Assembly: GCA_017448375.1 (NCBI GenBank)
Contig: JAFSLR010000313.1
Span: 2,873-66,872 of the forward strand
Source of the DNA: Synergistaceae bacterium
GTDB taxonomy: Bacteria; Synergistota; Synergistia; Synergistales; Aminobacteriaceae
Reading direction: 5' to 3'
DNA: 64,000 nucleotides
The notes under the pieces: model-generated
Told to the model about the DNA's origin: nothing
Seen by the model: only the letters and a program-made list of their open reading frames with translations
Databases searched by the model: none
Program-made: the position numbers and the translations under genes
In this document: positions 10,169 to 36,760 of the stretch, piece by piece
Numbering within the stretch: the stretch's first letter is position 1
Layout of the letters: each line of letters begins with the position of its first letter

Positions 10169-10230
10169 AAGAAGCTATAGAAGCTGGCGCTGATCTTCAT
10201 GCTGCGGATAAACCATATGGCGAAACTCCT

Positions 10231-14857: not shown

Positions 14858-15094
14858 AAGACTGATAGTTAGGCTTTGGCTGTAGTTAGAGACCCAATAA
14901 TGTGGGCTTATCTTTTTGTGTTGTCAGAAGGCCTGTACTAGAATATAAGTTAATTATTATATTGATAAATTATAGACTATAGTTATATTGTAAAAGATAT
15001 ATTACTATGTAAACTTCTGGACATTGGTGTCTAAAAGTGGTGTTTTGTTTTGCCCTATAAAAATGTATAATACCCAAAAAGGAAGGAACAAAGG

Positions 15095-16736: not shown

Positions 16737-16840
16737 AGGCTAATATGTCCTTGTGTGGCCTGATTTTATATTCTGGTTGGCCTGTTTAGAGGGCTATATG
16801 CTGATGGCGAGCCGATGGCGATGGTAAAATCACCACCACC

Positions 16841-19372: not shown

Positions 19373-19386
19373 TATGATTCTTCTTT

Positions 19387-19920
19387 CTAGAGTTCATTCT
19401 CTGCCAAAAACTTCTTCAATTCCTCGATCACTTTCGCTCCGTCGTAATCCTTGAATATTTTGACGAAACAGCCGCTAATCATCGGATTCAGAGCAAGCCC
19501 CATCTCCGCAGACCTGCAGTCCGTCATTAACCCATAACATCTTTTCTTGTTGGCGTAAGCAATGCCAAGTTCTACACATGCCCCCTCATCCGGAACGCGT
19601 CCGTCCAGTACCATGAAGAGAACATCTGCCTTGAGAATTTCGCTGACATCTTTATTGAAGATCATTCCGGTCTTCTCTGTCTCGTTTTTATTTTCCAGCT
19701 CTGATGCTAAGAAGCCGTCACGCTGAGGGAGAAAGACCGAGTAACCGTGATCCTCAAGGATTTTTGCGAGAAAGAGGTTGTAATCCCTCTCACTCTGTGA
19801 GAAGAGAGGCGCAGCGAAGTAGATAGAACCTTTTGATGTGGTAGTAGTATCTGCGGCTTCTAAAGTTACGGCTGTTCCCAGTAAGATTGTCATGATTACT
19901 AAACAGGTCAGAATTTTCAT
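19387..19920 (-). CDS. Nucleoside 2-deoxyribosyltransferase-like protein with N-terminal signal peptide
   Basis: Signal peptide MKILTCLVIMTILLGTAVTLEA. IYFAAPLFSQSER and DGRVPDEGACVELGIAYANKK match the NDT/DNPH1 family core, including the catalytic-type Glu. Confidence 0.65.
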   Translation of the reverse strand: MKILTCLVIMTILLGTAVTLEAADTTTTSKGSIYFAAPLFSQSERDYNLFLAKILEDHGYSVFLPQRDGFLASELENKNETEKTGMIFNKDVSEILKADVLFMVLDGRVPDEGACVELGIAYANKKRCYGLMTDCRSAEMGLALNPMISGCFVKIFKDYDGAKVIEELKKFLAENEL

Positions 19921-20976: not shown

Positions 20977-23394
20977 TCAATCTAGGTTCACACTTGGAGT
21001 GCCAAATACTCTCTGTTCCAGTGCTTTAATCCTTGCTTCCGCTGCGTTGATGTAGATTTCGGAATCTGTTTTTCTATAGATAACTACTGCTTTTTTCAGG
21101 CATTCGATGGCTTTATCAGCATTCTGTGCGTATTCCCATATTTTAGAGCGGAAATGCCAATCTTTTGCAATGTCGATATGATCCGGTCCTAGAAGCGGAA
21201 GCAACGTTTCACGAGCCACTTGGCTGTAATGAAGAGCGTCTTCTATTTTCCCTTCCCTGGCCAGAAGTACTGCGTATATTTCATATGAAAAACTTCTTGA
21301 GTAATCATCATGAAACATGTTGAAGTGTGCAATTCCTTGCTGAATCATCTCTATCGCTTCGTCATAGCGACCCAGAAGGTAGAGAATCTTAGAAAGATGA
21401 TATTCAGACCAACCCATTGCCTGCTCCGGCGTACAGCTATAAAATACGGAACAGAGTGCGTGGTTTTTTAGTTCCTGAGCATAGGCGGCCTCATAGTTTC
21501 CTAGCGAATAGTTTGCTTCTACGATACGTCCAGCGTTGTGTTGCATTAGATCACCTTCGAAACGGTCTATATCCTCGATCGGAACATCCTTTGTCAGTGC
21601 AGCTCCCTCCTCCGCAACAACGAGGCCTTCTTGATTCCTGCCGATCAGGATTAGTCCGTGAGCTAGTTTGTCGTAGCCATAGAGCTTCTGATACCGGAGA
21701 GGCGCTTCTACGATCAATTTTTTGCAGTCATCAAAGACCTGCTTGTAGAGGGAAAGGTCATAAACACGACCAATCTTTATGATGAGTGCATTCCAGTAGA
21801 GCGGGTGATTTTTCGGGAGGCGACGGCACATGGTATCTGCAATCTCCTTGATGCGGAACCGTTCCATCACAGGAAGTTGTGGACCCCATTTATAGGTCTC
21901 ATAGAAACTTGTAACCATCCTATGACAGCACTCTGAGTCCTTTTCTAACTCCTCCAGCATAAGATCGGCAATGAGGGGATGAAGGTGTACAGTATCCTGC
22001 ACCTCGTCATGAATGATCCAGCTACGTGCAATAAGACTGTCGATTAGGTCATAGTCTTCAAAACCGCACCATTTATAGAAGGTTTCCACATGAATGCCGA
22101 CGTTTGAGATTAGGGATAGATTTTTCAGGAGTCTCACTTCTTCCGCCGAAAGAGTGGACAGACGAAAGACCGCCCGGAGCCTTCCAAATATTTGATCTGC
22201 AAGTTTCTCGTTTTCCCTAAGGTTATGCAGCCGGTCATCTCTCAGTAGTTCTAACATCTTCTCCGGCTTTATCCGCCTTGACTGCATAGCTGAAGCCACC
22301 AGGCGGATACTCAGGGTATGGCGGTCAAGCAGGGTAATCAACTTCCGAACGATTTCTGTATCGACAGGTCCCATAGCTCGTGTATATTCGGAACGGAAGA
22401 CGGCAAGAAGCTCCTCATCGTTCTGCATTGGCTGCACTTCCATTTCGCGGTGCGCGCACCCTTGATGTATTCGTGTCGTGAAAATTACGCTATAAGTTCC
22501 GGAGAGGAATAGATCCAAGTCCGGGTCTCCATCCACATCAAAATTATCGACTACGATCAGGATTCTATGGTCCGCAATTCGCTTCATCAGTTCAATTTTC
22601 CTTCGTCCGTAGGCTTCATCGGAGTCAGCAGTAAATTCAGTTCGCTGTATCCCGTCAATGGGAAATGCGGAATCGCTGGCAAGAGTATGAGCAAGGCTTC
22701 CTTCAAAGGGTACCCACAGGACGGCATTGTAACGTTCAGCGTTTTCCTTGACATACATTTTAGCGAGCTCACTTTTTCCGAGTCCGCCCATTCCAACAAG
22801 AAACAGCTTATTGTATGTTCCGGATAGCTGTTCCTTAATGTAACTTAGTTCGTTCCTGCGTCCGACAAATTTCGTATCTGGGTAGACTAAAGATGTGATC
22901 AGTCTGTAGTTTTTTACAGGGAAAATGGTCTCTCCTGATAAAGCAGGAGTGGAAGTTAGCTCGACAAACTGCTCCTTTCCAAGAAGCCTTGAGACACGAT
23001 CTACTAGTTCCCGCACCTTGAGTAGTTCTGGTGGAATACCGCCATTCATGATGTGAATGCGCCCCAAGAAATAATACATGTCGTCACTAAGCTGGCATTG
23101 CTCAATCTGAAAAGGAAGGAGAGATATATCCTCATGGTTCTTGAAACGCTCGAAAGCGATATTAACCTCGTTGAAGCAATGCTCAGATAGATTTGACTTG
23201 CTATTTAAAACAAGTAAAAAGACTCGGCAGTACCGTATTGCTCGCACGATGGAACGAGCGTAATCATCGCTGCAGTCCCGCGGTGCGTACCAACAACTGA
23301 TTCTGGCGCTCTCCAGTGCAACAGCTAACTTATGCACAATATCTCCAGCACTGTCTGTGTGATAACTTATGAATACATCTCGCTTCTCATCCAT
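20977..23394 (-). CDS. TIR - NB-ARC (STAND NTPase) - TPR protein
   Basis: ORF track 20977..23454. ATG 23394 with GAGGA upstream gives MDEKRDVFISYHTDS (TIR betaA). SEHCFNEV is a TIR Glu motif. P-loop GMGGLGKSE, Walker B ILIVVDNFD, C-terminal TPR-like helices. Confidence 0.85.
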   Translation of the reverse strand: MDEKRDVFISYHTDSAGDIVHKLAVALESARISCWYAPRDCSDDYARSIVRAIRYCRVFLLVLNSKSNLSEHCFNEVNIAFERFKNHEDISLLPFQIEQCQLSDDMYYFLGRIHIMNGGIPPELLKVRELVDRVSRLLGKEQFVELTSTPALSGETIFPVKNYRLITSLVYPDTKFVGRRNELSYIKEQLSGTYNKLFLVGMGGLGKSELAKMYVKENAERYNAVLWVPFEGSLAHTLASDSAFPIDGIQRTEFTADSDEAYGRRKIELMKRIADHRILIVVDNFDVDGDPDLDLFLSGTYSVIFTTRIHQGCAHREMEVQPMQNDEELLAVFRSEYTRAMGPVDTEIVRKLITLLDRHTLSIRLVASAMQSRRIKPEKMLELLRDDRLHNLRENEKLADQIFGRLRAVFRLSTLSAEEVRLLKNLSLISNVGIHVETFYKWCGFEDYDLIDSLIARSWIIHDEVQDTVHLHPLIADLMLEELEKDSECCHRMVTSFYETYKWGPQLPVMERFRIKEIADTMCRRLPKNHPLYWNALIIKIGRVYDLSLYKQVFDDCKKLIVEAPLRYQKLYGYDKLAHGLILIGRNQEGLVVAEEGAALTKDVPIEDIDRFEGDLMQHNAGRIVEANYSLGNYEAAYAQELKNHALCSVFYSCTPEQAMGWSEYHLSKILYLLGRYDEAIEMIQQGIAHFNMFHDDYSRSFSYEIYAVLLAREGKIEDALHYSQVARETLLPLLGPDHIDIAKDWHFRSKIWEYAQNADKAIECLKKAVVIYRKTDSEIYINAAEARIKALEQRVFGTPSVNLD

Positions 23395-23768
23395 AGTGTT
23401 ATTTTCCTCGTTTTTTTTTCTGTCAATGGTCTTGCAGTACTGCCGCACAAGCACAGTTATAATAACAAAAATGTCCTTATTCTAGAAGCTCCAGCTTAAG
23501 TTGGATTGTCTGGATCACAATGCTTCTTTCCCTTAGCTGTCTAATAACATTAAGGTATAAATATATTTAGTAATTTTTGCCCATTATAACAGTTCTTTTA
23601 TAAAAATATTTTTTATGTTTAGTTTAACGATACTTGATATTATCTGAATTATACTAGAAAATTTCATCTGATTGAACATAGGCGTTGAATGGTGCTGGAG
23701 GCGTTTTTTTTAAAAGTTTTGAAGTAATGATATACTATTTTATAATTTAGCGAAGAGGTATTTCGATA

Positions 23769-25433
23769 TTGGAAGCATCAAGAGATGAAATATTTGATAT
23801 TTTTGTTTCCTACAGGTTCAGTGACGGCGAACTCATAAGCAGGAAATTTGCCGATGCCTTAAAGGAGATGGGATATTCCGTTTATCACAATTCAGACAGG
23901 AATCATAAAGGGAAGTTTCCTGATCGACTGAAGAGAGTGATAGACCACGTAAGGGATTTCCTGCTGATTGTTACGGAAAAGTGTTTGGAACATTTGATTA
24001 ACAGTACCGACTCGGACGGAATTGACTGGGTAAAGGAAGAACTGTTAGAGGCTATTGCGCAGGGGAAGAATATTATTCCTGTAATGATAGCTAATGTTGA
24101 TTGGCCAAAAAACTTATCGGTTTTGTCTAATGAAACCACTTCACTTATCCGGGATTTATCTGAACGTGAGAACATCAGGCTTCCGATTGATTTCGAGAAA
24201 GCACCTCCGCTGATTCTACTTTGCGGGAAACTGGATTCGAGGCCTAATGCTGGTGGTGTATTCAGAAATCAGAAGAATGATCCCAAATATGTTGATGTGA
24301 AGAAGCTGCTAGCTCAGCTCACGGATGAAGCGAATAACGGTAACCCTGTGGCAATGTACCAGCTTGCGGTTTTGTACCGTAACGGACTGGGTGATAAGCC
24401 TCGTGATAGTATCAATGAATATTATTGGCTGAAAAAGTTAATAGAAATTAATGATGAATCGGAGGAGGCGAAAAAGTATAAGGCTCACGCATATTGGCAT
24501 TTGGGTGGAATGTATTATAATGGTGAAGTTCCCGAAGAGAGACAATCATTCGAAGAATCGTATAAGTGTAAAGAGAAGGCTAGTCGTTTATGCCCTGATG
24601 ATTCCTCGTTTAACTCTTCGCTAATGTACATGAAATCATGGGTAGTTGGAGTTGCATTTGATTATGAGGATATTGTTCGTTCTTTTGAGGCTATAGATGA
24701 TTTAGAAAGCGCAGAAGCTAGTATAATTTTGCATCAGGCTGAATTTTATGATAGATATGGGGATTTTTCTCGGGCGATAGATTTATACCTCCGAGTATCT
24801 CATATATATAGCGGTGCTGCCTATAGGTTAGGAATGCTGTATCTGCGAGGGGTAGATTCAAATCCCCCTGATCCAAACGGAGTTTCAGCAGCTCATTACT
24901 TACAGGAAGCCGCAGATATGGGTTCTATAGAAGCGGCATATGAATTAGGAGTACTATATTTTCGTCCGCCTATTTCGAAAACAAGAGCAAAAAATGTCCA
25001 CCAAAACATAAAGAAAGCGATAAAATACTTAAAGATTGCCGCAAATATTAATCATACCAACGCACAATATTATCTCGAATGGATATATTCTCATGATTTA
25101 GGAATTAGTCAGGATATTGCCAAGGCAATTGAATATGGAGAAAACGCTGCAAGAAGTGGCTCGCTAAATGCTATGGTTACCCTTATCAGGTTATATCAGC
25201 ATGAAGAGTGCAAAAATTACGAAAGAGCCTGTCATTATGCGGTTAAAGCTGCAGAAGCCTACCAAGAGGCCGCATTATCTGCGGGGTATTTCTTCTTGTT
25301 TGGATGGGGGTGTGAACCAAATTTGAGTGAAGCAAGAAAATATTTTAGGATGGCCCTTAAGCAGCATACACTTGAAGCTCAATACATGCTGGACTTGATT
25401 CATGAGATAGAGGAGAAAGGCAACCTTGCATGA
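23769..25433 (+). CDS. TIR - Sel1-repeat (SLR) protein
   Basis: DIFVSYRFSDGE.. and IDWVKEELLEA (TIR), followed by Sel1-like units (AMYQLAVLYRNGLG, AAYRLGMLYLRG, AAYELGVLYF). TTG start in the track. Confidence 0.8.
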   Translation: MEASRDEIFDIFVSYRFSDGELISRKFADALKEMGYSVYHNSDRNHKGKFPDRLKRVIDHVRDFLLIVTEKCLEHLINSTDSDGIDWVKEELLEAIAQGKNIIPVMIANVDWPKNLSVLSNETTSLIRDLSERENIRLPIDFEKAPPLILLCGKLDSRPNAGGVFRNQKNDPKYVDVKKLLAQLTDEANNGNPVAMYQLAVLYRNGLGDKPRDSINEYYWLKKLIEINDESEEAKKYKAHAYWHLGGMYYNGEVPEERQSFEESYKCKEKASRLCPDDSSFNSSLMYMKSWVVGVAFDYEDIVRSFEAIDDLESAEASIILHQAEFYDRYGDFSRAIDLYLRVSHIYSGAAYRLGMLYLRGVDSNPPDPNGVSAAHYLQEAADMGSIEAAYELGVLYFRPPISKTRAKNVHQNIKKAIKYLKIAANINHTNAQYYLEWIYSHDLGISQDIAKAIEYGENAARSGSLNAMVTLIRLYQHEECKNYERACHYAVKAAEAYQEAALSAGYFFLFGWGCEPNLSEARKYFRMALKQHTLEAQYMLDLIHEIEEKGNLA

Positions 25434-25451: not shown

Positions 25452-27824
25452 TTACTCTTCACTTTCTTGCGCTGTGCGAATACTTTGCTCTGCATCTTGC
25501 CTTTTTTGTCTGATGCGTACTACATGAGGGTTATCTTCTCCGAGATACTGTTCCATGTCTAGCTCAAGAACGCTGTATAACATGACAGCTTCTTTTAGGT
25601 CGCCTTTGCGATAGGTATGATCAGCTATAGCTTCCCGCGTGTATGCTGTAGTCATGCTTTTATTCCCTAGATTTCTGAATTTAATTTCTAGCGCACAGTG
25701 AAGATTTTTTTCTGCTTTCTCATATTGTCTTATGTGACTATAGCAAATACCTAAGTCTGCTAAAACATATGCACTGCTTGTATTTTCTTCTCCATAATGA
25801 AGCATCATGAAGTCATAATTGCTCTTGCAGAGTGTTATAGCTTCTTCGTATTTCCCTTGCAACATAAGCATACGTTCTCTTGCTATCCTCAAATCCTCAT
25901 ACTGCTCTGGATAAGCATCACCATTTTGAATTAAGTAAAGATACATTTTCTCTGCCTCATCATAATGTCTTACAGCTTCTTCAAAATCTCCGCGTTCAGA
26001 AGCACAGCGGCCAATCTTGAAGCAAGCCTGAGCAAATTTCGCTGATATTGGCGCGTTGCTTGCCCTGTAGTGTTCAAATGATTTCTTATAAAACTGTTCT
26101 GCGGAAGAATCATCACCGCTGTTCAAGTATGCCCCCGCAAGATACAATGCCGCTAGAGCTGCCTGTTCTGACATGTCTCCGTATTCCCTGCATGAGAACG
26201 CATAAAACATTCTGCCCATTTCTTTAGCTTTTTCGTAATCTCCGCAAATCCAGCAAATGTTTACAAAGTCGCTGTATTCTGTGTAAAGAGATTTTACAGC
26301 TTCTGGGAACAAATATAGAAAATGCGACAAAAGCGGATAGTAGTTATTCCTTTCCTCTTCAGTTAGCCACCAGCTATCTTTCATGAGTAACCACAGGCCA
26401 GTTACGTAATCACGGCAATTTTCAGGGTCAGGCTTCAATTCGTTCACAATGACATCACGGATTATGGAGTGCAGTTGAAGCACGTCATTTTCTTTGTCCA
26501 GTACAAGCCAGCTATTATCTATTAGCCCGTTAATTACGTCATAATTATCGAGTTTCAGTATTTGGCCTAATAATGTCGCTTCGATACCGTTCGGAGGAAC
26601 TAATGACATGTACATGAGAATATGTTGCTTATCCTCTGATAGTCTTTCAAGCCTGAAAAGCTGCCGAATGTGATAATAAGAGCTATATTTTTCCGCAGTA
26701 CCTTTCATCTGTACACCCTCTTGCAAGGGCAGATGGATTCCCGAATCTTTCAGCAACTGGAGCATTTTTTCAGGCTTGATGAAACTTGCTCGCATCTGTT
26801 TCGCTATAAGCTCGACAGTTATTGTGTGATAGCTAATCAGATGGAGTATTTCATCTATGATACTCCAATTTTTGACATGGCGGTCATAATATTTCCTGAA
26901 AATATTTCTGACTTGTTCAATGTTCTCAATATGTCCAATGTGAATAACGGGGTAATCGCTGTGATTGTTGCGCGTAGTGATTAAGACGTGGCATGGACAA
27001 TTCAGAATGTCTTCTAAGTATGGATCATTATCTGTGTCGAAGTTATCGATGATTAAAAGTGTTCTTTCGTTCACAATGCGCCGAAAAACATTCATTTTTC
27101 TCTGATACCAAGCCTCAATAGTTTCCTGCTCACTGCGCTGTAGATTCTCTATCAGAATTTCATTGCCGCAGAAAAGTTCCTGCAATCCTGAAATATACCG
27201 CGTAAATATTATTGTGCTGTAACGAGACCTGAAAAGTTCTGCATACCTTCTAGCGATTTCACTTTTTCCGATTCCCCCCATGCCTTGAAGAAATAGAACG
27301 TGCTCACAGGTGAAATGATCTGCAATCTGCTTTATCTCTGAGTCCCTGCCTAAAAATGATTCCTTGGGATATTCTATACGTTCAACAAGTTGCAAGCGAT
27401 TGGGATTAAGGTATACGGCATCTTCATCAGAAACATGAAGTACTCTTTGAAGCAACTCCTCTATTCGTTCTTCCAGAGGAGGCACTGAAGCATCCAGCCA
27501 GTGAGCGGGGGCTAGATGATAGCGCATTTTAGGACTCAGGTCTGTATTGTCTATTTTGAACGGTATAATGTAGTAGCATGTACGTGTAGCTTCGGTTAAC
27601 TCTTTCAGGCATTCCGGCGAATTGATAGTATATTCGCCAACAATGAAGATGAAAATATCCGCCCGCGAAAGACCGTCCATGATTGATCCAGCCCAGTCGC
27701 CAGATGATATATTTCTGGGAGCAATCCAGCATGAAATACCATTTTCCTCAAGTCTACAGCATATTTTCTGAGCAATCGATGAATACTGATGTGCGTGAGA
27801 TATGAATGCCAGATGTTTTTCCAT
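25452..27824 (-). CDS. TIR - NB-ARC (STAND NTPase) - TPR protein, paralog
   Basis: HLAFISHAH.. and SPECLKELTEA (TIR). GMGGIGKSE, LLIIDNFD, FIKPEKMLQLLKD (shared with the 20977 paralog) and TPR repeats. Its start lies 1 nt after the upstream stop. Confidence 0.85.
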   Translation of the reverse strand: MEKHLAFISHAHQYSSIAQKICCRLEENGISCWIAPRNISSGDWAGSIMDGLSRADIFIFIVGEYTINSPECLKELTEATRTCYYIIPFKIDNTDLSPKMRYHLAPAHWLDASVPPLEERIEELLQRVLHVSDEDAVYLNPNRLQLVERIEYPKESFLGRDSEIKQIADHFTCEHVLFLQGMGGIGKSEIARRYAELFRSRYSTIIFTRYISGLQELFCGNEILIENLQRSEQETIEAWYQRKMNVFRRIVNERTLLIIDNFDTDNDPYLEDILNCPCHVLITTRNNHSDYPVIHIGHIENIEQVRNIFRKYYDRHVKNWSIIDEILHLISYHTITVELIAKQMRASFIKPEKMLQLLKDSGIHLPLQEGVQMKGTAEKYSSYYHIRQLFRLERLSEDKQHILMYMSLVPPNGIEATLLGQILKLDNYDVINGLIDNSWLVLDKENDVLQLHSIIRDVIVNELKPDPENCRDYVTGLWLLMKDSWWLTEEERNNYYPLLSHFLYLFPEAVKSLYTEYSDFVNICWICGDYEKAKEMGRMFYAFSCREYGDMSEQAALAALYLAGAYLNSGDDSSAEQFYKKSFEHYRASNAPISAKFAQACFKIGRCASERGDFEEAVRHYDEAEKMYLYLIQNGDAYPEQYEDLRIARERMLMLQGKYEEAITLCKSNYDFMMLHYGEENTSSAYVLADLGICYSHIRQYEKAEKNLHCALEIKFRNLGNKSMTTAYTREAIADHTYRKGDLKEAVMLYSVLELDMEQYLGEDNPHVVRIRQKRQDAEQSIRTAQESEE

Positions 27825-27825
27825 G

Positions 27826-29922
27826 TTAGTTTCCCCTTTTTTCTGGCTTTATAAGCTCCATGACAACATTAACATTATTCCTGTCATTTTTCTTGAAGTC
27901 TCTGTTTCCGTGCGTAACAGAGTTTTCTATCTGTGAAATCTCATCGAGCTTATCCCAGCCCACAAGGCATACGTGTTTTCTTGCTTCTTCATCTTGTCTA
28001 GGTTTTATGTCAGAGCTACCGTGCTCTTGAATTTCGGTCTGCTGCTTTTTGAGCCGCTCAGTAAATTCATCTATCTCCATGACATCGTACCCGAATGTGT
28101 AATGGAAAGCACACCATCTTAGATGTTCGCTCTTTGCGAGATTCTCTTTTTGTATGGGCGTTAATGTATTTGTCCCTACCATTATTTTGCGTATCAGCGG
28201 TATCAAGTAATCGACACTTGCACGGTTGCTCATTCTGTGGAAATATGCACATTGTTTCCAGTCTTCACTTATGCTGTTTCCTTTATCTTTATTGTAATGA
28301 TGGTTAAGCTCCATAGCGTACCTGTCAAGTTCTCCCGAATAAAGCAAATCTGAGTCATATATCGAGTATGTTTCGCATTCCTGTGCAGAGATAGAATAAC
28401 ACCTTACGCTTTTTGAATCACAAGTGTATACATTCTGCGGATGCCCCATAGCGTGGAGACGGTCAGCCATACGTATAGCTATATTCCTTGCAGTATCTCT
28501 GTCTTCAAGGCATATAACTATATATTTTAGCTTTGAGGCGTGTTCCTGAAGGTATTTGAAGCATTCTCCGCTCCTTATGTCGTACTGTTCAAAACCGATA
28601 TCGGCATCGGGCGTTGCAAACATTTTAGAGTACTGCGATCTTACGAAGCCTGTTTTGTCGCCATGTTTAGGATCGAATATCGTAATTTTTAGATTGCTTC
28701 CCTCAAAACGCCCGTTAGCAAGAACTTTCCGCAATACTTCATGACCGATACGCCCGAAACCGCCTATAAGAACCTCTATATCCTCAGTAGCGCATCCGTC
28801 CTTATCGAAATTTATGAAATTGCACAAAGGATATTTATATATCAGGAGGCGGGCATTCATTTCGTACTCGTCAAAGGAAATTACTCTCCCGTAGCCGTAT
28901 TGCTTCTTGTCTGACTGAAAGAGCATCCCTTTTTCTTCATCAGCACCAAGTAGCACTAGTTCTGTCTGTTCAGGGGGTATACCTTCTTTTTTGAGAGTGG
29001 CAGACATCTTGCGTGCGTACTGAAGATTTCTGTCGTAATCCTCCGATAGAGTATAAAGTCTCAGCTTCATATTCTTCTTCCCGATGTGAATTTCTTTCAG
29101 GAATGATGTGGTAGCTTTTAACGCATCTGCACCTGAATACACGAGTCCGCCAAGATTTTGTATTGAAGCCTCATAATTTTCACAGACCATGTTGTCTACA
29201 TATACAAGCAGGTTATCTCCAGTATTTGTGATATTTCTGCTAAATGCGAGAGAGGTTGCATTGATGCCGAACACTAAATCTACACTGGAGACTTGTGTTT
29301 TTGTTCTGACCCACTTAAGCAGGTTATCTCCAAAACGTATAAGCAGTGTGCTTACAGCGGTAAGAAAAGCAATGAGATGAAGTAACCAGAACACAAGAAC
29401 GAGCGGCGGGTATTTAGCTTCCGGCAAACTGAAAAAGACATCAGCATTACCGCGACCATAAAACATCCAGCCTACATCCATGACAGAACTTATGATTACG
29501 TAAAAAACTTTATAGAACCAAGAAGCCTCCTTTGCCCAGACTAGGGAATCGTTTTTTGACAAGCCTAGCTCTAAGCCTCTATAGTGGCAGTAGAAATAGA
29601 AGATCATGCCTCCAAAGAACATCAAAACAAATGCCCATTTCAGTAGGTTTGTTCTTCCATTGGGATACTTTGATATAAGTATTATCAGCTCTGGGAGAAG
29701 AACAATGGAAAGGATACATGCCACAGCAATCTGGAAAGCTCCGTAATGCATAAAACCCATTAAAAGAGTTTCTGCGATAACCATGGAATAGAATGCTACT
29801 TTCAGTGACTTTACTCCATTGTATTTATATTTTAGTACGCAAAGTATAAGAACAATGAGTCCTCCTGATGCCGCTACAATATTGAGGTTATAAACCCGCG
29901 CTAAATCCCCGATATTATTCAT
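27826..29922 (-). CDS. Multi-pass membrane protein with two RCK/TrkA-N-like Rossmann modules and a C-terminal RyR-like repeat
   Basis: About 200 aa of hydrophobic helices. DLVFGINATSLAF.. (degenerate) and VLIGGFGRIGHEVLRKVL (GxGxxG). The C-terminal LAKSEHLRWCAFHYTFGY...KHVCLVGWDKLDE...DRNNVNVVMEL matches the bacterial RyR-domain pattern as I recall it. Confidence 0.55.
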   Translation of the reverse strand: MNNIGDLARVYNLNIVAASGGLIVLILCVLKYKYNGVKSLKVAFYSMVIAETLLMGFMHYGAFQIAVACILSIVLLPELIILISKYPNGRTNLLKWAFVLMFFGGMIFYFYCHYRGLELGLSKNDSLVWAKEASWFYKVFYVIISSVMDVGWMFYGRGNADVFFSLPEAKYPPLVLVFWLLHLIAFLTAVSTLLIRFGDNLLKWVRTKTQVSSVDLVFGINATSLAFSRNITNTGDNLLVYVDNMVCENYEASIQNLGGLVYSGADALKATTSFLKEIHIGKKNMKLRLYTLSEDYDRNLQYARKMSATLKKEGIPPEQTELVLLGADEEKGMLFQSDKKQYGYGRVISFDEYEMNARLLIYKYPLCNFINFDKDGCATEDIEVLIGGFGRIGHEVLRKVLANGRFEGSNLKITIFDPKHGDKTGFVRSQYSKMFATPDADIGFEQYDIRSGECFKYLQEHASKLKYIVICLEDRDTARNIAIRMADRLHAMGHPQNVYTCDSKSVRCYSISAQECETYSIYDSDLLYSGELDRYAMELNHHYNKDKGNSISEDWKQCAYFHRMSNRASVDYLIPLIRKIMVGTNTLTPIQKENLAKSEHLRWCAFHYTFGYDVMEIDEFTERLKKQQTEIQEHGSSDIKPRQDEEARKHVCLVGWDKLDEISQIENSVTHGNRDFKKNDRNNVNVVMELIKPEKRGN

Positions 29923-30050
29923 ACTCTACACTGTCCCTTTACGAAAAATTATTTTGTGCGTATTGAAATTTATTATACATTGGACGTCGAAAATTGAATA
30001 CATGCTGTATAATAAAAACCATAATAAAATAAAATTAGGAAGTATTAGCG

Positions 30051-30188
30051 ATGTCAAAACTTACATACAAGACGAAGGGCAATTCCTCCCCGCAGGGAAA
30101 ACCCAGAGTTTTCTTCTCATGTAATCCGAAAGATTTTGAATATTATATCGTTTTGTCGACAGATAGTAGAAAGCGGTCAGGAAAATGA
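30051..30188 (+). pseudogene. 45-codon stub resembling the N-terminus of a TIR-like protein (possible remnant)
   Basis: MSKLTYKTKGNSSPQGKPRVFFSCNPKDFEYY.. then a stop. Another frame continues ..DIVESGQENDFKECLNRIKSF. Looks like a deletion-scarred gene. Confidence 0.3.
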
Positions 30189-30453
30189 TTTCAAGGAGTG
30201 CTTGAACCGAATAAAAAGTTTTACCCGATACCAGAGAAGAGCCTTAGAACCTGTTCAGTATCCCATGGAAACGTAATATAATCTTCTTATTTATGGAGTT
30301 CATCTGAAATTTAATTTAAGGAGGTGGATAAACGTGGGATGAACATATACATTTTAAGTTTTTTAGCTATAATAAATTATAATGCAAAAACGAGTAGCAG
30401 TAACTGTACGGAATAGTCATTCTAAAAGTGCTGTTTTTCTGTGTATTTGCTGA

Positions 30454-33400
30454 TTGCTCTTTGCACAAAAAGCAAATTTGAATAAAGAAGGATTAAAAAA
30501 GAAGGAATCAATCATTAAACAGAAATATTACGCATTTATAAGTTACAGTCATAAAGATCAAAAAATAGCGAAGAAACTTCAAACAAGATTACAGCATTAT
30601 CACCTTCCAACATCGTTGCGAAAAGCGAATCCAGATTTACCGAAGAATCTTCGCCCAATTTTTATTGATGAATCGAATCTCGTTGGTAGTGTTTTGAAGG
30701 AAGCGCTTCAGAATAATCTTAGTCAGTCGAAGTACCTGATTCTGATTTGCTCGCCGAACAGTGCGAAATCTGAATATGTGAACGATGAGGTCAGATACTT
30801 CATAGAGAATGGCAAGGGTGACAGAATTATTCCGTTGATTGTAGATGGTGTGCCACATTCTGAACGTGAATGCTTTCCGCCGGCACTTCTCGAACTTCCC
30901 AGAGAACGTGAACTACTTGGGATCGATTTGAAAAAATTTGGAGTTCGTGGGGCATTCCTTCGAGTGATAGCGACAATGCTGGGACTTGATTTGGATAATT
31001 TCGTTTCGTATGAGGATCGGATCAGAAGGAAACGAAGCATGATCTTAACCTCTATCGCAGCAGCGATTATGTTTTTTGCTGGATTCTTAATCTGGCAGAA
31101 TGTCCCCCACACGCACTATTATCGAACGTATGTCTACCGTTGGGAAAAACCAATCGGATTATTCGAAGTAGAATCCGAAGCTGCTCGTAAAAGAATGGCG
31201 TACACTTACAAATTCACAACTTTGAAGGGAGAAGTTCAGAAGATTGAGCGCATAAATTCAGCCGGAGTTCTGGTTAATCCGTTAAATCCTACACCGCTTC
31301 TCGAACCAGCCAAAGTTGAATTTCGTCCGGATAGTTCAGTCGATTATTTTGACATTTACGGACACAGAATTTACAGGAAAAGACATTTGAGTATGAGAGT
31401 TGTCGATTTTTATTGTGGAAAATATAGTGAAATTCCTTACGCTTTTCAGTTCGATAATCTTAGTGTTCTTGATTCGGAGTTAGAAGATCCCGGAACCAAT
31501 GGGGGGCGAGAGAATATAGATACAGGAAATATTATCCGTATGACACTTGAATTTGATGATAACGGTTACATAGTCAAGCAAATTTTCCGTCGTACTGCTG
31601 AGAGTGGCAAGGACAAACGCGGTTTTTTCACTCGCGATAAAAAGGGCAGATGGGGGTTGGGTTATACAGTTGATGAACTCGGAAGAATCACAGCAATTCA
31701 CAATTTAAACTTGAAATGGGAAATTATGCCGATTCAGGGGATTTATACTCAGAAATTCGACTATGAAAATTCTCCGTATCCTGTGAAAATTTCATATGCT
31801 GGTAAAGACGGTGAACCTGTTGAGGGCGAGGATGGGTACGCATTTACGACCGTAAGTTATGATGAGTATTTCAATGCCGTCAAAGTGTCAAATTTTGATA
31901 CTGATGGAAAGCTCACCACAGATATTTCTGAAACACGCTACACCTATGATACAAACGGCTTCAGAACTTCAGAAAGCTATTACGATGCGAATCTCGAACC
32001 TATTCTTGTCAGAGAGGGCTATTTCTGCGTTAAATTTACAAATGACACAAATGGTAGAATTATTAGAGGTTCTTACTATAACACCAAAAACGAAAAAACC
32101 GTATGTTTAAGTGGATACGCAGAGTTTGTTCGTAAGCTCAACGAAAATGGTCAGCTTTTGCTAGAGACTTATTATGATGTTGAAGGAAATTCAGTTGCAA
32201 ATTACCACAATAATATTGTATACGCTTGCAAGATCACTTATGAAAATGGATTTATTCATAAAATCGAAAATTTGGATCAAAATGGGAATCTAACGCTCAA
32301 CGACGAAGATTTTGGCTATGCATCACAAATAAGGACGTATGACACTGACGATGATAAGATCGTTGGAATAACTTATCTTGACACGGAAGGCAACAAAATT
32401 CTTATATCAGACGGGTTCTCTGAAGGATTTGCCGAGATACGTTACACATATGATACAGGCAACATAACCAGCGTATCGTTCTATGGCGATAAAGGAGAGG
32501 CAGTTTGTGTATATGATACTGCAAAAACAGTTTATGAGTGGGAAAACGGGAGTATGATTTCCGTTAAATTTTTCGGAACAGATGGGAACCCTGCTATAGC
32601 CAGGGGGTACTCCAAAGCTGAATATGAGTACGACGAGAATGGTCTGCAAATCTGGGAGCGATATTATGGAGTGAACGGCGAACGTGTAAATACCACATTT
32701 GCACGTGAAGCACTTCCTGGTGTTGATGGGCGTTCTGCAATCAAACACACTTATGATTCAGATGGAAATGAACTGACTTATGAAGAATTTGACGCAAACG
32801 ATAATTCTATCTCATTCAGCGTTATGAATATAAGTGATGAAGCTGAAAAGGTTGAGTGGCTCAGAAATGCTGCTGAACAAGGCGACGCGCGAGCGCAATA
32901 TACTCTCGGTGAGATGTATCACGGGGGGCTGAGTGTTGAGAAAAAATATGTTGAAGCTGCAAAGTGGTTCAGGAAAGCTGCTGAACAGGGGTACGCATAC
33001 GCACAATTTAATCTTGGCAATATGTATTACAACGGTGAAGGTGTCAAGAAAAATAAATCTGAAGCTGTAAAGTGGTTCAGAAAAGCTGCAGATCAGGGCT
33101 ATGCCTATGCACAATTCAATCTTGGTAATATGTATTACAACGGTGAAGGTATCAAGAAAAACAAATCTGAAGCTGCAAAATGGTTTAGAAAAGCTGCCGA
33201 ACAAGGAGATGCGGAAGCACAATTTAATCTTGGCGATATGTATTACAATGGTGATGGCGTCAAGAAAAATAAATCCGAAGCGGTCAAGTGGTTTAAGGAA
33301 GCTGCATTACGAGAAGATAACGATGCGCAGTATACTCTTGGAGTAATGTATTACAATGGTGAAGGTGTTGTGCAAAATAAACCTGAAGCTGTTGAATGGT

Positions 33401-33516
33401 TCACAAAGGCTGCAGAAGGCGGTGTTTCTGAAGCAGTCGAATGGCTCAGGAAAGCATCTAAACAAGGAGTTATCGAGGCTCAAAACGCGCTCAAAGAACT
33501 GGGCGAAACTTGGTAA
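30454..33516 (+). CDS. TIR - transmembrane helix - YD/RHS-like repeat - Sel1-repeat protein (1020 aa)
   Basis: YAFISYSHKDQ.. and SEYVNDEVRYF (TIR). TM helix MILTSIAAAIMFFAGFLIW. Repeated Y.YD..G units (RYTYDTNGF, EYEYDENGL, HTYDSDGNE). Six or more Sel1 units at the C-terminus. TTG start is uncertain. Confidence 0.8.
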   Translation: MLFAQKANLNKEGLKKKESIIKQKYYAFISYSHKDQKIAKKLQTRLQHYHLPTSLRKANPDLPKNLRPIFIDESNLVGSVLKEALQNNLSQSKYLILICSPNSAKSEYVNDEVRYFIENGKGDRIIPLIVDGVPHSERECFPPALLELPRERELLGIDLKKFGVRGAFLRVIATMLGLDLDNFVSYEDRIRRKRSMILTSIAAAIMFFAGFLIWQNVPHTHYYRTYVYRWEKPIGLFEVESEAARKRMAYTYKFTTLKGEVQKIERINSAGVLVNPLNPTPLLEPAKVEFRPDSSVDYFDIYGHRIYRKRHLSMRVVDFYCGKYSEIPYAFQFDNLSVLDSELEDPGTNGGRENIDTGNIIRMTLEFDDNGYIVKQIFRRTAESGKDKRGFFTRDKKGRWGLGYTVDELGRITAIHNLNLKWEIMPIQGIYTQKFDYENSPYPVKISYAGKDGEPVEGEDGYAFTTVSYDEYFNAVKVSNFDTDGKLTTDISETRYTYDTNGFRTSESYYDANLEPILVREGYFCVKFTNDTNGRIIRGSYYNTKNEKTVCLSGYAEFVRKLNENGQLLLETYYDVEGNSVANYHNNIVYACKITYENGFIHKIENLDQNGNLTLNDEDFGYASQIRTYDTDDDKIVGITYLDTEGNKILISDGFSEGFAEIRYTYDTGNITSVSFYGDKGEAVCVYDTAKTVYEWENGSMISVKFFGTDGNPAIARGYSKAEYEYDENGLQIWERYYGVNGERVNTTFAREALPGVDGRSAIKHTYDSDGNELTYEEFDANDNSISFSVMNISDEAEKVEWLRNAAEQGDARAQYTLGEMYHGGLSVEKKYVEAAKWFRKAAEQGYAYAQFNLGNMYYNGEGVKKNKSEAVKWFRKAADQGYAYAQFNLGNMYYNGEGIKKNKSEAAKWFRKAAEQGDAEAQFNLGDMYYNGDGVKKNKSEAVKWFKEAALREDNDAQYTLGVMYYNGEGVVQNKPEAVEWFTKAAEGGVSEAVEWLRKASKQGVIEAQNALKELGETW
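32850..33480 (+). repeat. Tandem ~108-nt coding repeats (Sel1 units) with high nucleotide identity
   Basis: Successive units read ..AVKWFRKAA(E/D)QG(Y/D)A(Y/E)AQFNLG(N/D)MYYNG(E/D)G(V/I)KKNKSEA.. with near-identical DNA. Confidence 0.8.
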
Positions 33517-33934: not shown

Positions 33935-36760
33935 ATGAGAAAGTATGGCATTGTGATAATGGTGATGTTTGTGCTTGCGGTGAGTTCGTGCGCATGGGCC
34001 GATAAACTTTTTGATTGTCCGATAAAGAATGTTCCTGCGAGTATTTCTTGCCTATATGGAGATGCAGGTTATAAGGGGCACACCGGCTATGATTTAAAAG
34101 CTGATTACGGTACTCCTATATACGCGCTGTTTGACGGTAAAGTTACGTACAGGGTGATTTACAGCGACAGAAAAAATGATGAGAAATACCATTCATGGAG
34201 CTATGGGAATGTCTTAGAGCTTACGAGCGATGGGGTGATTGAAGGGAATAGATATTCAATGCTTGTTGCGCACCTGAGTGAGTTTGACGGGAAAAGATAT
34301 ACTGTCCCATCTACAATAGATGGAATTGAACTCATCTGTGATCATGATGATGTTGCTGACAGAGGGTCTTATGACGGTGTCCCTAAAAAATGGATATGTG
34401 AAGAAGGTATGCCAGTCAAGAAGGGGCAACTGATAGGTTATTCTGGTAACTGTGGGAACTCAACAGGGGATCACCTTCATATTGAAATAAGAGTGAATGG
34501 GAGATTAGTTGATCCAGATGGCTACATATCTAGAGAACGTTTTGTAGGAGAATATGTAGAGTCTGTGAAAATAGATGAAGATAACTTTCCGGATGAGAAA
34601 TTTCGCGCAGCATTATTAAATCGATATGACCCTAATCATGACGGCATATTAACTGGAGAGGAAATAGAAAATATCAATAGCTTATTTATTGAGTTAGAGG
34701 GCATATCTAATCTCAAAGGAATTGAATACTTCACGGTCCTTAAAGGGCTTTTCTGCGATCAGAATCTGCTAACGGAATTAGATGTCAGCAAAAATACAGC
34801 TCTTGAGCAACTTAATTGTGATAATAACCAGTTAAGGGTTCTTGATGTTGGCAATAATACTGCTCTTAGAATCCTTTACTGCCATAACAATCAGCTTGTA
34901 TCACTTGATGTAAGCGGCTGTTCAGATCTGCAATATCTGTATTGCAATAGTAATCAATTAACCGCACTAGATTTGAGCGGCTGTAATGCTCTGAAGCATA
35001 TCGAGTGTAATAAGAACCAGTTGACAACACTGGATATAGATGGTTGTTCTAAACTGCAAGAGCTGGACTGTTCAAGTAACAAGCTGACTACGCTTGATTT
35101 TGGTAGCCAGATGTACAGAGACAGTTGTACCAATCTTTTAGAGTTAAATTGCTCTAATAACCAGTTAAACGATCTGGATATGGGTAGTTGTCATGCTCTT
35201 CAAACTCTTACATGCTCATATAATACATTAACCACTCTTAATTTGAGTGGTTGTAAGCATTTATATAGTATTACCTGTGATCATAATCTGCTGACTGTAA
35301 TTGATATAACTAGCTACCCACAGGCAATTGTGTTTTGTGATGAGGGTGTTAACGTAATTCGTGAATCTAAGCCCAAAATCACCACGACATCTCCTGATGA
35401 TGCGGTATTGGGTATGCTGTATTCCTTCCAGCTTACAGCAACAGGCTCTGATACTATAACGTGGACATATACAGGAACCATTCCTGAAGGTCTTAATTTT
35501 AGTGCATCAGGTCTCATTATCGGAATACCAACTAAAGCGCAAACGTGTACCTTTGTTGTGAAGGCATTAAACAGTTATGGTGAAGATACAAAAGAGTTGA
35601 CGCTAACAGTATCATCTTCATCTCCTATTAGTATCACCACATCTAGCCTCAAAACCGGAACAATCGGGAAGTCCTACAGTGTAACGCTCAAAGGCAAAGG
35701 AACAAAGCCACTCACGTGGTCAGCAGAGGGGCTTCCCAATGGTCTCAAGTTCAGCGAGAAGGGAAAAATCTCCGGCAAACCGATAGAGTTCGGGACGTTT
35801 AATGTGAAGTTTACACTCTCGAATGGTGCAGGGAGTACTACGAAGGAATTACCGCTTACGATCAAAGGTATTCCGCCGAAGATTTCCGGCAGTCTCGCAA
35901 AAGCTGAACTTAATGTGCCCTACTCTTCCGGTTTAAGACTCACGAAGGGAAGTCAGCCTATCACGTGGAGTGTAACAGGGAATCTTCCTGAAGGACTCTC
36001 ATTCGACGCATCAACAGGAATCATCTCAGGTACCCCAGAGTCCTACAAGAGTTCAGGCTTCAAACTCACAATAACAGCTTCCAATGGTGCTGTGGAGAAG
36101 TCGAAGTCTGTGAAGCTCAAGGTTAAGGGAACGAAGCCCAAGATCACAACTAGCCTGCCGAACGCAACGGTAGGACAGCCATATACAGCTGCTCTAACCG
36201 CAACAGGAAGTGAGCCAATCACATGGACAGCGACGAATCTTCCTGAAGGTCTCAGCCTTAATGGGGATACAATTTCTGGCACACCAACTGGAGCGGCGAA
36301 GTCCTATAAGGTGAAGCTAGTGGCGAAAAATCCTGTGAAGTCCGTCAAGAAGACTGTGACTCTCAAGGTCAACGCAGCATCTGCCCAAAGTGCCCCCGTA
36401 ACGTCTCAGGGAGACGAGGAGTTGTATTCATTCGGCGAGTATTCGCCACTTCCAGAGTTGAAGCTCACGCCAGAGTTGGAACTCACGAAGGGGTATACCG
36501 TTGTTGCGGAGCTTGGAACAATATCGGCTGACGAAGCTGGAATGTACGAGTTCGATGTAGTGTTGAGCGATAACGCCCCAGAGGGAGCGGAATTAGTGTA
36601 TATCGCCAATTCTGACAATCCTTCGGAGGACGATGAGATAGTGGAGTTCTATGATGAAACTGGAGCAGAGACCACAGTAGTTCCCGAAAACCGAAACATT
36701 ACTGTGTCGATATGGCTGAACGAAGGAGTAATTTACTCTCCAGTTATAGCAGTGAAATAA
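33935..36760 (+). CDS. Secreted M23 (LytM-type) metallopeptidase - leucine-rich repeat - multiple Ig-like (He_PIG-like) domain surface protein
   Basis: Signal peptide. HTGYDLKADYGTPIYALFDG and GDHLHIEI (M23 HxxxD/HxH). About 10 LRR units (L..LD.S.C..L..L.C..NQLT.LD). Five repeats of ..ITW...G.LPEGL.F....G.ISG.P. Confidence 0.85.
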   Translation: MRKYGIVIMVMFVLAVSSCAWADKLFDCPIKNVPASISCLYGDAGYKGHTGYDLKADYGTPIYALFDGKVTYRVIYSDRKNDEKYHSWSYGNVLELTSDGVIEGNRYSMLVAHLSEFDGKRYTVPSTIDGIELICDHDDVADRGSYDGVPKKWICEEGMPVKKGQLIGYSGNCGNSTGDHLHIEIRVNGRLVDPDGYISRERFVGEYVESVKIDEDNFPDEKFRAALLNRYDPNHDGILTGEEIENINSLFIELEGISNLKGIEYFTVLKGLFCDQNLLTELDVSKNTALEQLNCDNNQLRVLDVGNNTALRILYCHNNQLVSLDVSGCSDLQYLYCNSNQLTALDLSGCNALKHIECNKNQLTTLDIDGCSKLQELDCSSNKLTTLDFGSQMYRDSCTNLLELNCSNNQLNDLDMGSCHALQTLTCSYNTLTTLNLSGCKHLYSITCDHNLLTVIDITSYPQAIVFCDEGVNVIRESKPKITTTSPDDAVLGMLYSFQLTATGSDTITWTYTGTIPEGLNFSASGLIIGIPTKAQTCTFVVKALNSYGEDTKELTLTVSSSSPISITTSSLKTGTIGKSYSVTLKGKGTKPLTWSAEGLPNGLKFSEKGKISGKPIEFGTFNVKFTLSNGAGSTTKELPLTIKGIPPKISGSLAKAELNVPYSSGLRLTKGSQPITWSVTGNLPEGLSFDASTGIISGTPESYKSSGFKLTITASNGAVEKSKSVKLKVKGTKPKITTSLPNATVGQPYTAALTATGSEPITWTATNLPEGLSLNGDTISGTPTGAAKSYKVKLVAKNPVKSVKKTVTLKVNAASAQSAPVTSQGDEELYSFGEYSPLPELKLTPELELTKGYTVVAELGTISADEAGMYEFDVVLSDNAPEGAELVYIANSDNPSEDDEIVEFYDETGAETTVVPENRNITVSIWLNEGVIYSPVIAVK

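Follow-up and report, generated by a model that had tools for sequence, protein, structure and literature searches.

Among described bacterial systems, those closest to the locus considered here belong to Thoeris, in which membrane effectors gated by TIR products are known from types II, V, VI, VII and X (10.64898/2025.12.03.692087). The survey that defined types V-XI left Avs-type TIRs out and kept only candidates enriched in the vicinity of known defence genes; its type X combines a short ThsB with an "ion channel" effector, ThsK, and the system of Bacillus sp. BH32 has been validated as anti-phage (10.64898/2025.12.03.692087). For type X, none of cyclic ADP-ribose (cADPR), 2'cADPR, 3'cADPR or His-ADPR was detected as the signal (10.64898/2025.12.03.692087). 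Phage proteins of the RyR/Repeat12 fold, in turn, bind or, in one case, hydrolyse 2'cADPR, 3'cADPR and cADPR (PMC13232231; 10.64898/2026.06.04.730250). Here, we analyse a 64,000-nucleotide stretch of DNA from a Synergistaceae bacterium (assembly GCA_017448375.1, contig JAFSLR010000313.1, positions 2,873 to 66,872 of the forward strand), hereafter the window. It carries a gene for a 698-residue membrane protein (27826..29922, minus strand), followed at once by a gene for a 790-residue TIR-NB-ARC-TPR protein of the STAND type (25452..27824, minus strand). We propose that the membrane protein is a divergent relative of K+ channel-RCK-RyR proteins, and that it may serve as the effector of a TIR signalling module.

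The membrane gene is real, because 106 clusters at 90% identity match its product over most of its length. A profile search extends the wider family to 2311 clusters (50% identity) at E<=1e-3, with 297 at E<=1e-30. An initial annotation of this DNA, made from the sequence alone, had reported the 698-residue open reading frame, a stop codon 1 nucleotide before the 790-residue TIR gene, and several motifs, all of which were borne out by the open reading frame list, the translation and the junction. The translation holds VLIGGFGRIGHEVL at residues 384-397, and its tail holds LAKSEHLRWCAFHYTFGY (595-612), KHVCLVGWDKLDE (649-661) and DRNNV (680-684). An AlphaFold2 model built on an alignment of 41 sequences has a mean predicted local distance difference test score (pLDDT) of 81, rising to about 90 in the soluble portion and falling to 37-60 over the first 90 residues. 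It comprises six N-terminal helices, then two Rossmann-like alpha/beta modules and then a helical tail.

On this model, the predicted membrane domain with its six helices takes up residues 1-208 (29299..29922, minus strand, as are the other parts of the gene). It is followed by RCK-like module 1 at about residues 209-375 (28798..29298), which shows a beta-alpha-beta arrangement in the model and was aligned to the paralog described below and to TrkA/GsuK. RCK-like module 2 occupies about residues 376-524 (28351..28797), and the RyR/Repeat12-like C-terminal module, supported by hhalign against the RyR region of the paralog, occupies residues 525-698 (27829..28350). The glycine motif of module 1 is degenerate (VDLVFGINATS, with no GxGxxG), and its G219 is found in 66 of 68 family members. 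Module 2 has an intact GxGxxG, in which G388 and G390 are present in all 68 members and G393 in 67.

Comparison of the full model with the Protein Data Bank (PDB) by Foldseek retrieved the TrkA gating ring (4j9u/4j9v, E 4e-5 to 6e-5, probability up to 1.0) and the RCK-gated K+ channel GsuK (4gx0/4gvl, E 6e-4 to 1e-3, probability 0.99-1.0, with 4gx0 aligned over 533 columns). Against viral structures, the same model retrieved generic Rossmann folds only. Weak Pfam matches to Gp_dh_N, Sacchrp_dh and TrkA_N, gathered from the query and its homologs, centre on the GxGxxG of module 2. A tandem RCK-type gating-ring fold is supported by these comparisons of the predicted structure, and its placement after a homolog of an inner helix by the hhalign alignment described below. 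Direct searches with hidden Markov models (HMMs) were less generous. With the whole protein and three fragments at E<=10, they gave only sub-threshold Rossmann matches around the GxGxxG. Pfam TrkA_N (PF02254) did not match the 698-residue protein and matched 5 of 41 homologs at E >= 0.011. The RCK/TrkA_N assignment of the initial annotation therefore stands at the level of the fold, with its Foldseek matches to TrkA and GsuK and its invariant GxGxxG, but not at the level of a direct HMM match.

The ancestry of the protein is clearest from a paralog. At many Firmicutes loci, the gene adjoining the family member encodes a protein of about 515 residues with the canonical filter TTLTTVGYGD. These paralogs score above threshold with Pfam Ion_trans_2 (47-52 bits) and RyR (28-35 bits against a cut-off of 27.4), and their profile (A3) matches KcsA at E 1.6e-19 and RyR1 Repeat12 at E 1.9e-19 among PDB sequences. 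Alignment of the family profile (A1) to the paralog profile by hhalign gave a probability of 99.5% and an E-value of 5.8e-23 over query residues 174-664, a span that extends from the inner helix through the two RCK modules into the RyR module. Because this alignment, the KcsA and RyR1 Repeat12 matches of the paralog, and the Foldseek matches to TrkA and GsuK all agree, the 698-residue protein is, by homology, a divergent paralog of the K+ channel-RCK-RyR protein.

The membrane domain shows little of this descent. In its last helix (172-197), it retains homology to the inner helix of the K+ channel paralogs, the hhalign alignment starting at residue 174. A TVGYG filter is absent from the membrane domain (VMDVGWMFYGRGN is not a filter), and Pfam Ion_trans_2 matches neither the whole protein nor its fragments. 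The only family-wide conservation within the domain lies at MF.GR (153-157) and FWL.HL (178-183). We do not claim a pore loop, as the membrane region gave no hhalign alignment to the pore of the paralog. The domain has diverged beyond recognition, and because it has neither filter nor alignment to that pore, the term "ion channel" would denote descent and not a recognisable pore. The "ion-channel-like" label of the initial annotation is thus retained for its K+ channel descent and given up for its pore.

The C-terminal module was compared with RyR domains. PF02026, the Pfam RyR model, matches neither the whole protein nor its C-terminal 207 residues, even at E<=10, and 2 of 41 homologs match it at E 0.015. 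Searches of PDB sequences by phmmer and by profile (with the query, A1 and a C-terminal profile, A4) returned nothing significant; A4 aligned to an RyR1 chimera on KHvCLVsWDELDE at a non-significant E of 0.42. A 25-residue helical insertion (about 617-641) separates the two motif halves of the module and probably explains why PF02026 misses it. The motifs themselves are EH600xRW603, KH650vCLv.WD.LD and K677..D680R.N, and they are preceded by a conserved upstream half-repeat with H541, Y543, W555, R563, R567 and D571. Across 68 members from two phyla, the pocket-type residues are retained almost without exception: E599 in 68, H600 in 67, W603 in 68, H650 in 66, K677 in 53 and D680 in 65. The same residue pattern is invariant in 25 paralogs, and the motif EHxRW...H.CLV.WD.L...K..D is conserved.

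In the phage protein RyDEP, the pocket is formed by H75, W78, H100 and D117, with H75 and D117 as the catalytic dyad (PMC13232231). The pocket of RyR Tad comprises H129/W132, K147/H154 and K170/D171 and binds 3'cADPR with a Kd of 43 nM (10.64898/2026.06.04.730250). The near-invariant H600, W603, H650, K677 and D680 of our family match this ligand-residue pattern. The RyR assignment of the initial annotation thus rests on hhalign to paralogs that score with PF02026 and on motif conservation, and it finds no footing in a direct HMM match. For both the RyR and the RCK modules, direct HMMs reject the assignment, and the more sensitive methods reverse that conclusion. The idea that a cADPR-like molecule might act on a RyR-type domain has since been made concrete by the phage RyR-fold proteins of two 2026 preprints, which bind or cleave 2'cADPR, 3'cADPR and cADPR.

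The second line of evidence is genomic. We scanned one genome per species and found 176 loci, of which 80 were fetched with flanks of up to 10 kb. The taxa represented are Synergistaceae/Fretibacterium, Lachnospiraceae, Butyrivibrio, Oscillospiraceae, Solobacterium and others, and almost all of the sequences are metagenome-assembled genomes from rumen or gut. Neighbouring open reading frames were called with a simple caller of our own and searched with a TIR HMM seeded from the window, with a Pfam cross-check on the downstream genes. A TIR gene lies within 10 kb at 47 of the 80 loci. Of the 356 genes at positions ±1 to 3, 46 are TIR genes, against none of the 260 at positions six or beyond; TIR genes occur only from -3 to +5 relative to the family gene, share its strand in 49 of 52 cases, and are often tightly spaced or overlapping with it. 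The preferential TIR linkage that the initial annotation had proposed to look for is therefore strongly positive. In Synergistaceae, a TIR gene stands within four genes at 9 of 13 loci and is the next same-strand gene at eight, and the linkage recurs across Synergistota and several Bacillota families. Among the genes immediately downstream on the same strand (n=57, window included), Pfam assigns TIR_2 to 17 and the Ion_trans_2 K+ channel paralog to 25.

Variants of the family and of its surroundings were also seen. Two members are unusually long (L021:10010-13432, 1140 residues, and L043:9818-13237, 1139 residues), and the C-terminal extension of the former contains a papain-family protease domain (Peptidase_C1, E 4e-10) and a lectin-like domain (E 3e-19). 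The closest relatives of the membrane gene adjoin very large DUF4062 proteins at two loci: a 1379-residue protein with an NPHP3_N STAND module (L090:3722-7861), which lies beside an AAA_15/AAA_21 ATPase gene and a type I restriction S subunit gene, and a 1570-residue protein with faint TPR matches (L091:2842-7554).

The strongest single item in favour of a TIR link is a gene fusion. At the locus of the closest homolog (L092, 78% identity), an ordinary family gene is directly followed by a gene for a 726-residue protein (L092:2910-5090) that joins a TIR domain, membrane helices, both RCK modules and the RyR module in one chain; the family HMM matches it at E 5e-232 over residues 209-723. A non-identical 715-residue fusion (P0107, L093:2120-4267) has the same gene order in an independent metagenome sample, and the TIR HMM matches it at E 6e-39. 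We considered whether the fusion was an assembly chimera, and reject this because a different sample holds the second, non-identical copy in an unchanged gene order. In L092, a RyR-ending gene is followed, at the same junction as in the window, by an ortholog of the 790-residue TIR-STAND protein with 84% identity. The window lacks the fusion gene, and nucleotide comparison (blastn) matches the window to L092 on both sides of it, with an overlap of about 390 nucleotides where the 3' ends of the two RyR-ending genes are homologous. Recombination that removed the fusion gene in the lineage of the window would account for this arrangement, as would its gain by duplication in L092.

Within the window, the junction between the pair reads ...GGGGAAAC TAA c ATG, such that a single nucleotide separates the stop codon of the membrane gene from the ATG of the TIR-STAND gene, and a Shine-Dalgarno-like GGGGA lies about 8 nucleotides 5' of that ATG. 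Given this junction and the GGGGA run, co-transcription and coupled translation are very likely. In Pfam searches, the 790-residue protein matches TIR_2 (E 1.5e-16, residues 7-124), TPR_12 (E 4e-17), AAA_16 and NB-ARC (24.1 bits against a cut-off of 23.5). Its Walker A motif, GMGGIGKS, begins at residue 181, and a putative catalytic glutamate lies within CLKE75L. None of the PADLOC Avs models matches it, the only PADLOC matches being weak ones to TIR models.

Three further TIR genes surround the pair, and the putative catalytic glutamate is present in all four TIRs of the window. A second TIR-NB-ARC-TPR protein (20977..23454, minus strand, 825 residues, assigned by Pfam) is a paralog of the first, matching its NB-ARC-TPR part at E 3.5e-53 by phmmer, and its Walker A lies at residue 221. 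A soluble TIR-like Sel1 protein of 554 residues (23769..25433, plus strand), identified by Pfam Sel1 and PADLOC TIR effector models, is encoded convergently to the TIR-STAND gene. Our own TIR HMM places its TIR at residues 9-112 (E 6e-13), and a hydropathy scan found no hydrophobic segment in it. The third gene (30454..33516, plus strand, annotated with an uncertain TTG start) encodes 1020 residues comprising a TIR domain, one hydrophobic helix and Sel1 repeats (Pfam TIR_2, ThsB_TIR and Sel1). It is divergently transcribed, 531 nucleotides upstream of the membrane gene. This intergenic region (29923..30453, 531 nucleotides) likely holds the promoters of both flanking genes. On the minus strand, a -10-like TATAAT near 29975 was picked out by eye; on the plus strand, positions 30346-30373 resemble a promoter. 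Overall, the consensus scan was not above chance.

These data lead us to favour, with somewhat better than even confidence, a Thoeris-like module in which an ADP-ribose (ADPR)-derived signal made by TIRs is received by the RyR pocket, relayed by the RCK modules and turned into an output by a membrane effector. The proposal builds on the domain anatomy, the K+ channel-RCK-RyR homology, the conservation of ligand-type residues, the operonic TIR linkage and the TIR fusion. The sensors would be the membrane-anchored TIR-Sel1 protein, the two cytosolic TIR-NB-ARC-TPR STAND proteins and the soluble TIR-Sel1 protein. Once activated, their TIRs would convert nicotinamide adenine dinucleotide (NAD+) to an ADPR-derived signal, and we infer signal production here rather than mere NAD+ depletion. 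The signal would bind the RyR-type pocket (H600, W603, H650, K677/D680), acting in a receptor role, and the RCK modules would relay the resulting change of conformation to the membrane domain; module 2 may also read NAD(H) or adenine nucleotides. As output, we envisage ion flux or depolarisation of the membrane, by which cells would cease to grow or undergo abortive infection, with a presumed anti-phage effect. More tentatively, we suggest that this could be a complete bacterial pathway, running from a TIR of Toll-like receptor layout or STAND type through a cADPR-type nucleotide to a Repeat12/RyR domain on an RCK-gated protein of the K+ channel family.

Several observations weigh against this proposal. 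None of the curated HMMs of Pfam, NCBIfam and PADLOC recognises the 698-residue protein. When the C-terminal module was modelled in isolation (pLDDT 84), Foldseek found no significant match in the PDB (best E 2.2). The top six matches of this model included, at non-significant E-values of 2.7-5.4, the RyR3 Repeat12 structures 9l9b and 9l91, which had the best TM-scores (0.44-0.46), and the RyR-like protein 6ug5 of B. thetaiotaomicron. The membrane region and the pore of the paralog did not align (hhalign probability 0.2%), and because of this and the missing selectivity filter, ion conductance by the protein is putative. The TIRs of STAND proteins are usually treated as NAD+-depleting effectors, which is why the Thoeris survey excluded them (10.64898/2025.12.03.692087). 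The RyR-like module could also be a hydrolase and not a receptor, because the corresponding H/D pair is catalytic in RyDEP (PMC13232231). Finally, among the 73 loci scored, 31 lack a TIR gene within four genes of the family member. Many TIR-less loci lie on short contigs, and several have full flanks with housekeeping neighbours. PADLOC, run on 107 neighbours, gave scattered matches only, indicating weak enrichment near known defence genes and no clear defence-island signature.

The identity of the usual TIR partner bears on what the module might sense. A Walker A motif occurs in 0 of 56 TIR neighbours across the 80 loci, and only the two STAND proteins of the window have one. The STAND pairing is local, and STAND is not the conserved partner. 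Instead, in 53 of the 59 TIR partners, an N-terminal TIR is followed 60-100 residues later by a strongly hydrophobic 19-mer, the only one in the protein, with Sel1 repeats, beta-propellers or unassigned domains C-terminal to it. The putative catalytic column is E in 52 of 60 partners in our own alignment, which was used after a phmmer search of the TIR domain against the PDB had returned only coiled-coil noise. In the window, the protein encoded by 30454..33516 has such a helix at about residues 195-214, preceded by RRKR, and over 195 aligned N-terminal residues it is 72% identical to the product of the gene immediately downstream of the family member in L002. By this identity, it is the window's ortholog of the usual operon partner. 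The predicted topology of these partners, read from a hydropathy scan, is a cytoplasmic TIR, one membrane helix and an extracytoplasmic repeat domain. Such a layout is reminiscent of Toll-like receptors and could possibly define a class of bacterial TIR receptors of that kind.

This topology invites a different account, which we consider unlikely: that the ectodomain responds to a stimulus from outside or from the envelope (for example host factors, neighbouring cells or damage to the cell wall) and that the TIR nucleotide reversibly tunes ion flux through the RCK-RyR protein, amounting to transmembrane signalling and not to abortive infection. The single helix after the TIR, with basic residues before it in the window protein, fits this account, as does the resemblance of the Sel1 part to the periplasmic Sel1 proteins AlgK, MotX and ExoR. 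The lack of a strong defence-island signal among the neighbours points the same way. So does the pairing of the family with a bona fide K+-selective channel at Firmicutes loci, since regulated K+ flux fits better there than killing. The topology is nevertheless drawn from a hydropathy window only. In addition, cytosolic TIR-STAND or DUF4062-STAND proteins are encoded in the window and in its closest relatives, beside restriction-modification and AAA_15/21 ATPase genes typical of conflict systems. To our knowledge, moreover, all bacterial TIR signalling systems characterised so far are anti-phage.

A further account, which we rate as rather doubtful, dispenses with a dedicated messenger. The TIRs would be plain NADases, and the membrane protein would read either the fall of NAD(H) at its GxGxxG or the rise of linear ADPR at its RyR site and respond with depolarisation. 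The RCK domains of GsuK, TrkA and KtrA bind NAD+/NADH or ATP/ADP. GsuK and TrkA are the best Foldseek matches of the model, the GxGxxG of module 2 is invariant, and the window protein has the beta-2 acidic residue typical of NAD-binding Rossmann folds. The general view of STAND-TIR proteins as NAD+-depleting effectors also speaks for it (10.64898/2025.12.03.692087). Yet that acidic residue, D417 at the end of beta-2 of module 2, is found in only 34 of 68 members, against near-invariant RyR-type residues, and because of this difference conservation points to the RyR pocket, and not to the D417 Rossmann site, as the conserved ligand site. Most partners, moreover, are TIRs of the small-signal type that match ThsB_TIR, not STAND proteins.

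It is improbable, in our judgement, that the RyR module is an enzyme or sponge for the TIR product, as in RyDEP, with the membrane protein as a negative regulator or signal terminator. The catalytic dyad H75/D117 of RyDEP is conserved as H600/D680 (PMC13232231). However, 6 of 8 RyDEP homologs tested bind the signal without cleaving it, despite conserved residues (PMC13232231). RCK modules joined to a membrane domain derived from a K+ channel, with a canonical K+ pore in the paralogs, form the architecture of a ligand-gated channel and not of a soluble scavenger. Strongly disfavoured is the absence of any functional link, with a housekeeping K+ transport regulator lying by chance in a TIR-rich island: although some members with full 10-kb flanks have only housekeeping neighbours, TIR genes are position-enriched, on the same strand and frequently close to or overlapping the family gene, a pattern that recurs in Synergistota and several Bacillota families, and direct TIR fusions occur at two independent loci.

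The remainder of the window provides context for the TIR island. Just upstream of it (12560..17965, plus strand) lie genes for a 765-residue protein with an IstB-like ATPase domain, ParA (AAA_31/CbiA), a ParB_N protein and a Helicase_C protein. Possibly, a plasmid or integrative element carries the island; across all 64 kb of the window, no tRNA gene was detected. Bordering the TIR cluster (18065..19920, minus strand), a nucleoside 2-deoxyribosyltransferase-like gene (19387..19920; Nuc_deoxyrib_tr E 6.5e-22) is directly upstream of a gene for a 435-residue protein with a C-terminal STAS domain (18065..19372), and this pair may be another nucleotide-centred conflict module. Beside the TIR-Sel1 gene (33935..36760, plus strand) is a gene whose 941-residue product, probably secreted or located at the surface, combines Peptidase_M23 with leucine-rich repeats and He_PIG/PKD Ig-like domains. 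Further away, two adjacent ankyrin-repeat proteins of 301 and 571 residues (9263..11946, plus strand) are unusual for bacteria, the longer matching Ank_2 at E 3.5e-102. A 612-residue protein (46812..48650, minus strand) has an unusual combination of MatE/MurJ-like membrane domains and a C-terminal HATPase_c_2 (anti-sigma-type kinase).

The preferred reading, a TIR-made signal acting on a RyR-type receptor domain, must be set against the type X system with which we began. The initial annotation knew of no described defence system with this pairing, a statement that type X corrects, as it too pairs a TIR with an "ion channel". Candidates for ThsK were found through a protein-database search followed by contig look-ups (L085:3247-3987 and L087:3319-3987, Bacillus cereus group), 13 nucleotides upstream of the ThsB gene and beside near-identical ThsB proteins, which are Bacillus relatives of the published type X ThsB. 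An earlier attempt by tblastn with B. cereus Q1 ThsB against plasmids had recovered type II (Macro) Thoeris loci only. The candidates are all-membrane proteins of 222-246 residues, with no RCK or RyR part and no Pfam match, and they show no detectable homology to the 698-residue family (hhalign probability 0.1%). At L084-L086, a protein with a faint Nuc_deoxyrib_tr match is convergent to the ThsK-ThsB pair. Taken as a whole, the initial interpretation keeps its domains and its TIR link and is amended in its partner type, its pore and its neglect of type X.

Full-text literature searches, whose coverage excluded most subscription journals, yielded no publication that connects TIR with a RyR domain of host origin or with an RCK or K+ channel protein. 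In the part of Table S1 of the Thoeris survey that was examined, the terms RyR, TrkA, RCK, Rossmann, potassium and Sel1 are absent (10.64898/2025.12.03.692087). Beyond that part of the table, one of the 29 putative Thoeris effector classes may still correspond to the 698-residue family. The family is so far confined to rumen and gut anaerobes (Synergistaceae, Lachnospiraceae, Oscillospiraceae, Solobacterium), which are under-sampled in defence-system surveys.

If the proposal is correct, the family would represent both a new effector class and a new sensor domain, RyR/Repeat12, for TIR-based bacterial signalling. It would also provide a host-side function for the bacterial RyR domain, whose characterised examples to date are all phage counter-defence proteins (May-June 2026 preprints). 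The host receptor imitated by phage RyR-domain sponges would then have been found, together with a prokaryotic precedent for the link between cADPR and the ryanodine receptor in animals. For the coupling of a cyclic-ADPR-type ligand in the Repeat12 pocket to channel gating, which is debated for animal ryanodine receptors, it would offer a small and tractable bacterial system. If the partner ectodomains are indeed extracytoplasmic, some bacterial TIR signalling may start at the cell surface and not in the cytoplasm.

Set beside the known systems, the locus resembles type X Thoeris in placing a TIR gene next to a membrane protein annotated as an ion channel. It differs in that the type X ThsB has about 165 residues, whereas the TIR proteins of the window and the family are large, with a membrane helix and Sel1 or propeller domains, or with NB-ARC-TPR. 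With Thoeris types I, II and V-VII (SLOG, Macro, DUF2270, DUF6650 and SLATT effectors), it shares the logic of a TIR sensor-enzyme whose neighbouring effector has a dedicated nucleotide-binding domain, here a putative one. Membrane proteins account for several of those effectors, and islands with several ThsB genes around one effector are known. Unlike them, the presumed sensor here is of a predicted RyR/Repeat12 fold, absent from the Thoeris effector sensor domains described in the part of the literature covered, and the effector core is RCK-gated and derived from a K+ channel.

The likeness to RyDEP and RyR Tad lies in a predicted RyR/Repeat12 (PF02026) fold and in the His-x-x-Trp, His and (Lys)Asp residues common to the 698-residue family. 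The pockets of these phage proteins bind 3'cADPR, 2'cADPR and cADPR with nanomolar to sub-micromolar affinity (PMC13232231; 10.64898/2026.06.04.730250). They are, however, small soluble counter-defence sponges or a glycosidase, whereas the RyR domain described here is host-encoded, fused to RCK and membrane domains, interrupted by a 25-residue insertion and genomically tied to TIRs. A RyR domain beside TIR producers occupies the position expected of the receptor that phage proteins mimic.

Like GsuK, MthK, TrkA/TrkH and KtrAB, the protein carries tandem Rossmann-type RCK modules after an inner helix. Unlike them, it has no recognisable pore helix or filter, bears extra N-terminal helices, matches TrkA_N only below threshold and ends in a RyR module that they lack. 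With the eukaryotic RyR, for which the link to cADPR is debated, it shares a Repeat12 nucleotide pocket, here a putative one, on a protein of ion-channel descent. That likeness concerns one domain only: the pore type (here of the K+ channel lineage), the size and the architecture are unrelated, and Ca2+ is not implied. In its overall logic, the proposed module also recalls the plant pathway from TNL through EDS1 to a helper-NLR Ca2+ channel, in which a TIR-derived ADPR-type signal likewise ends in ion flux.

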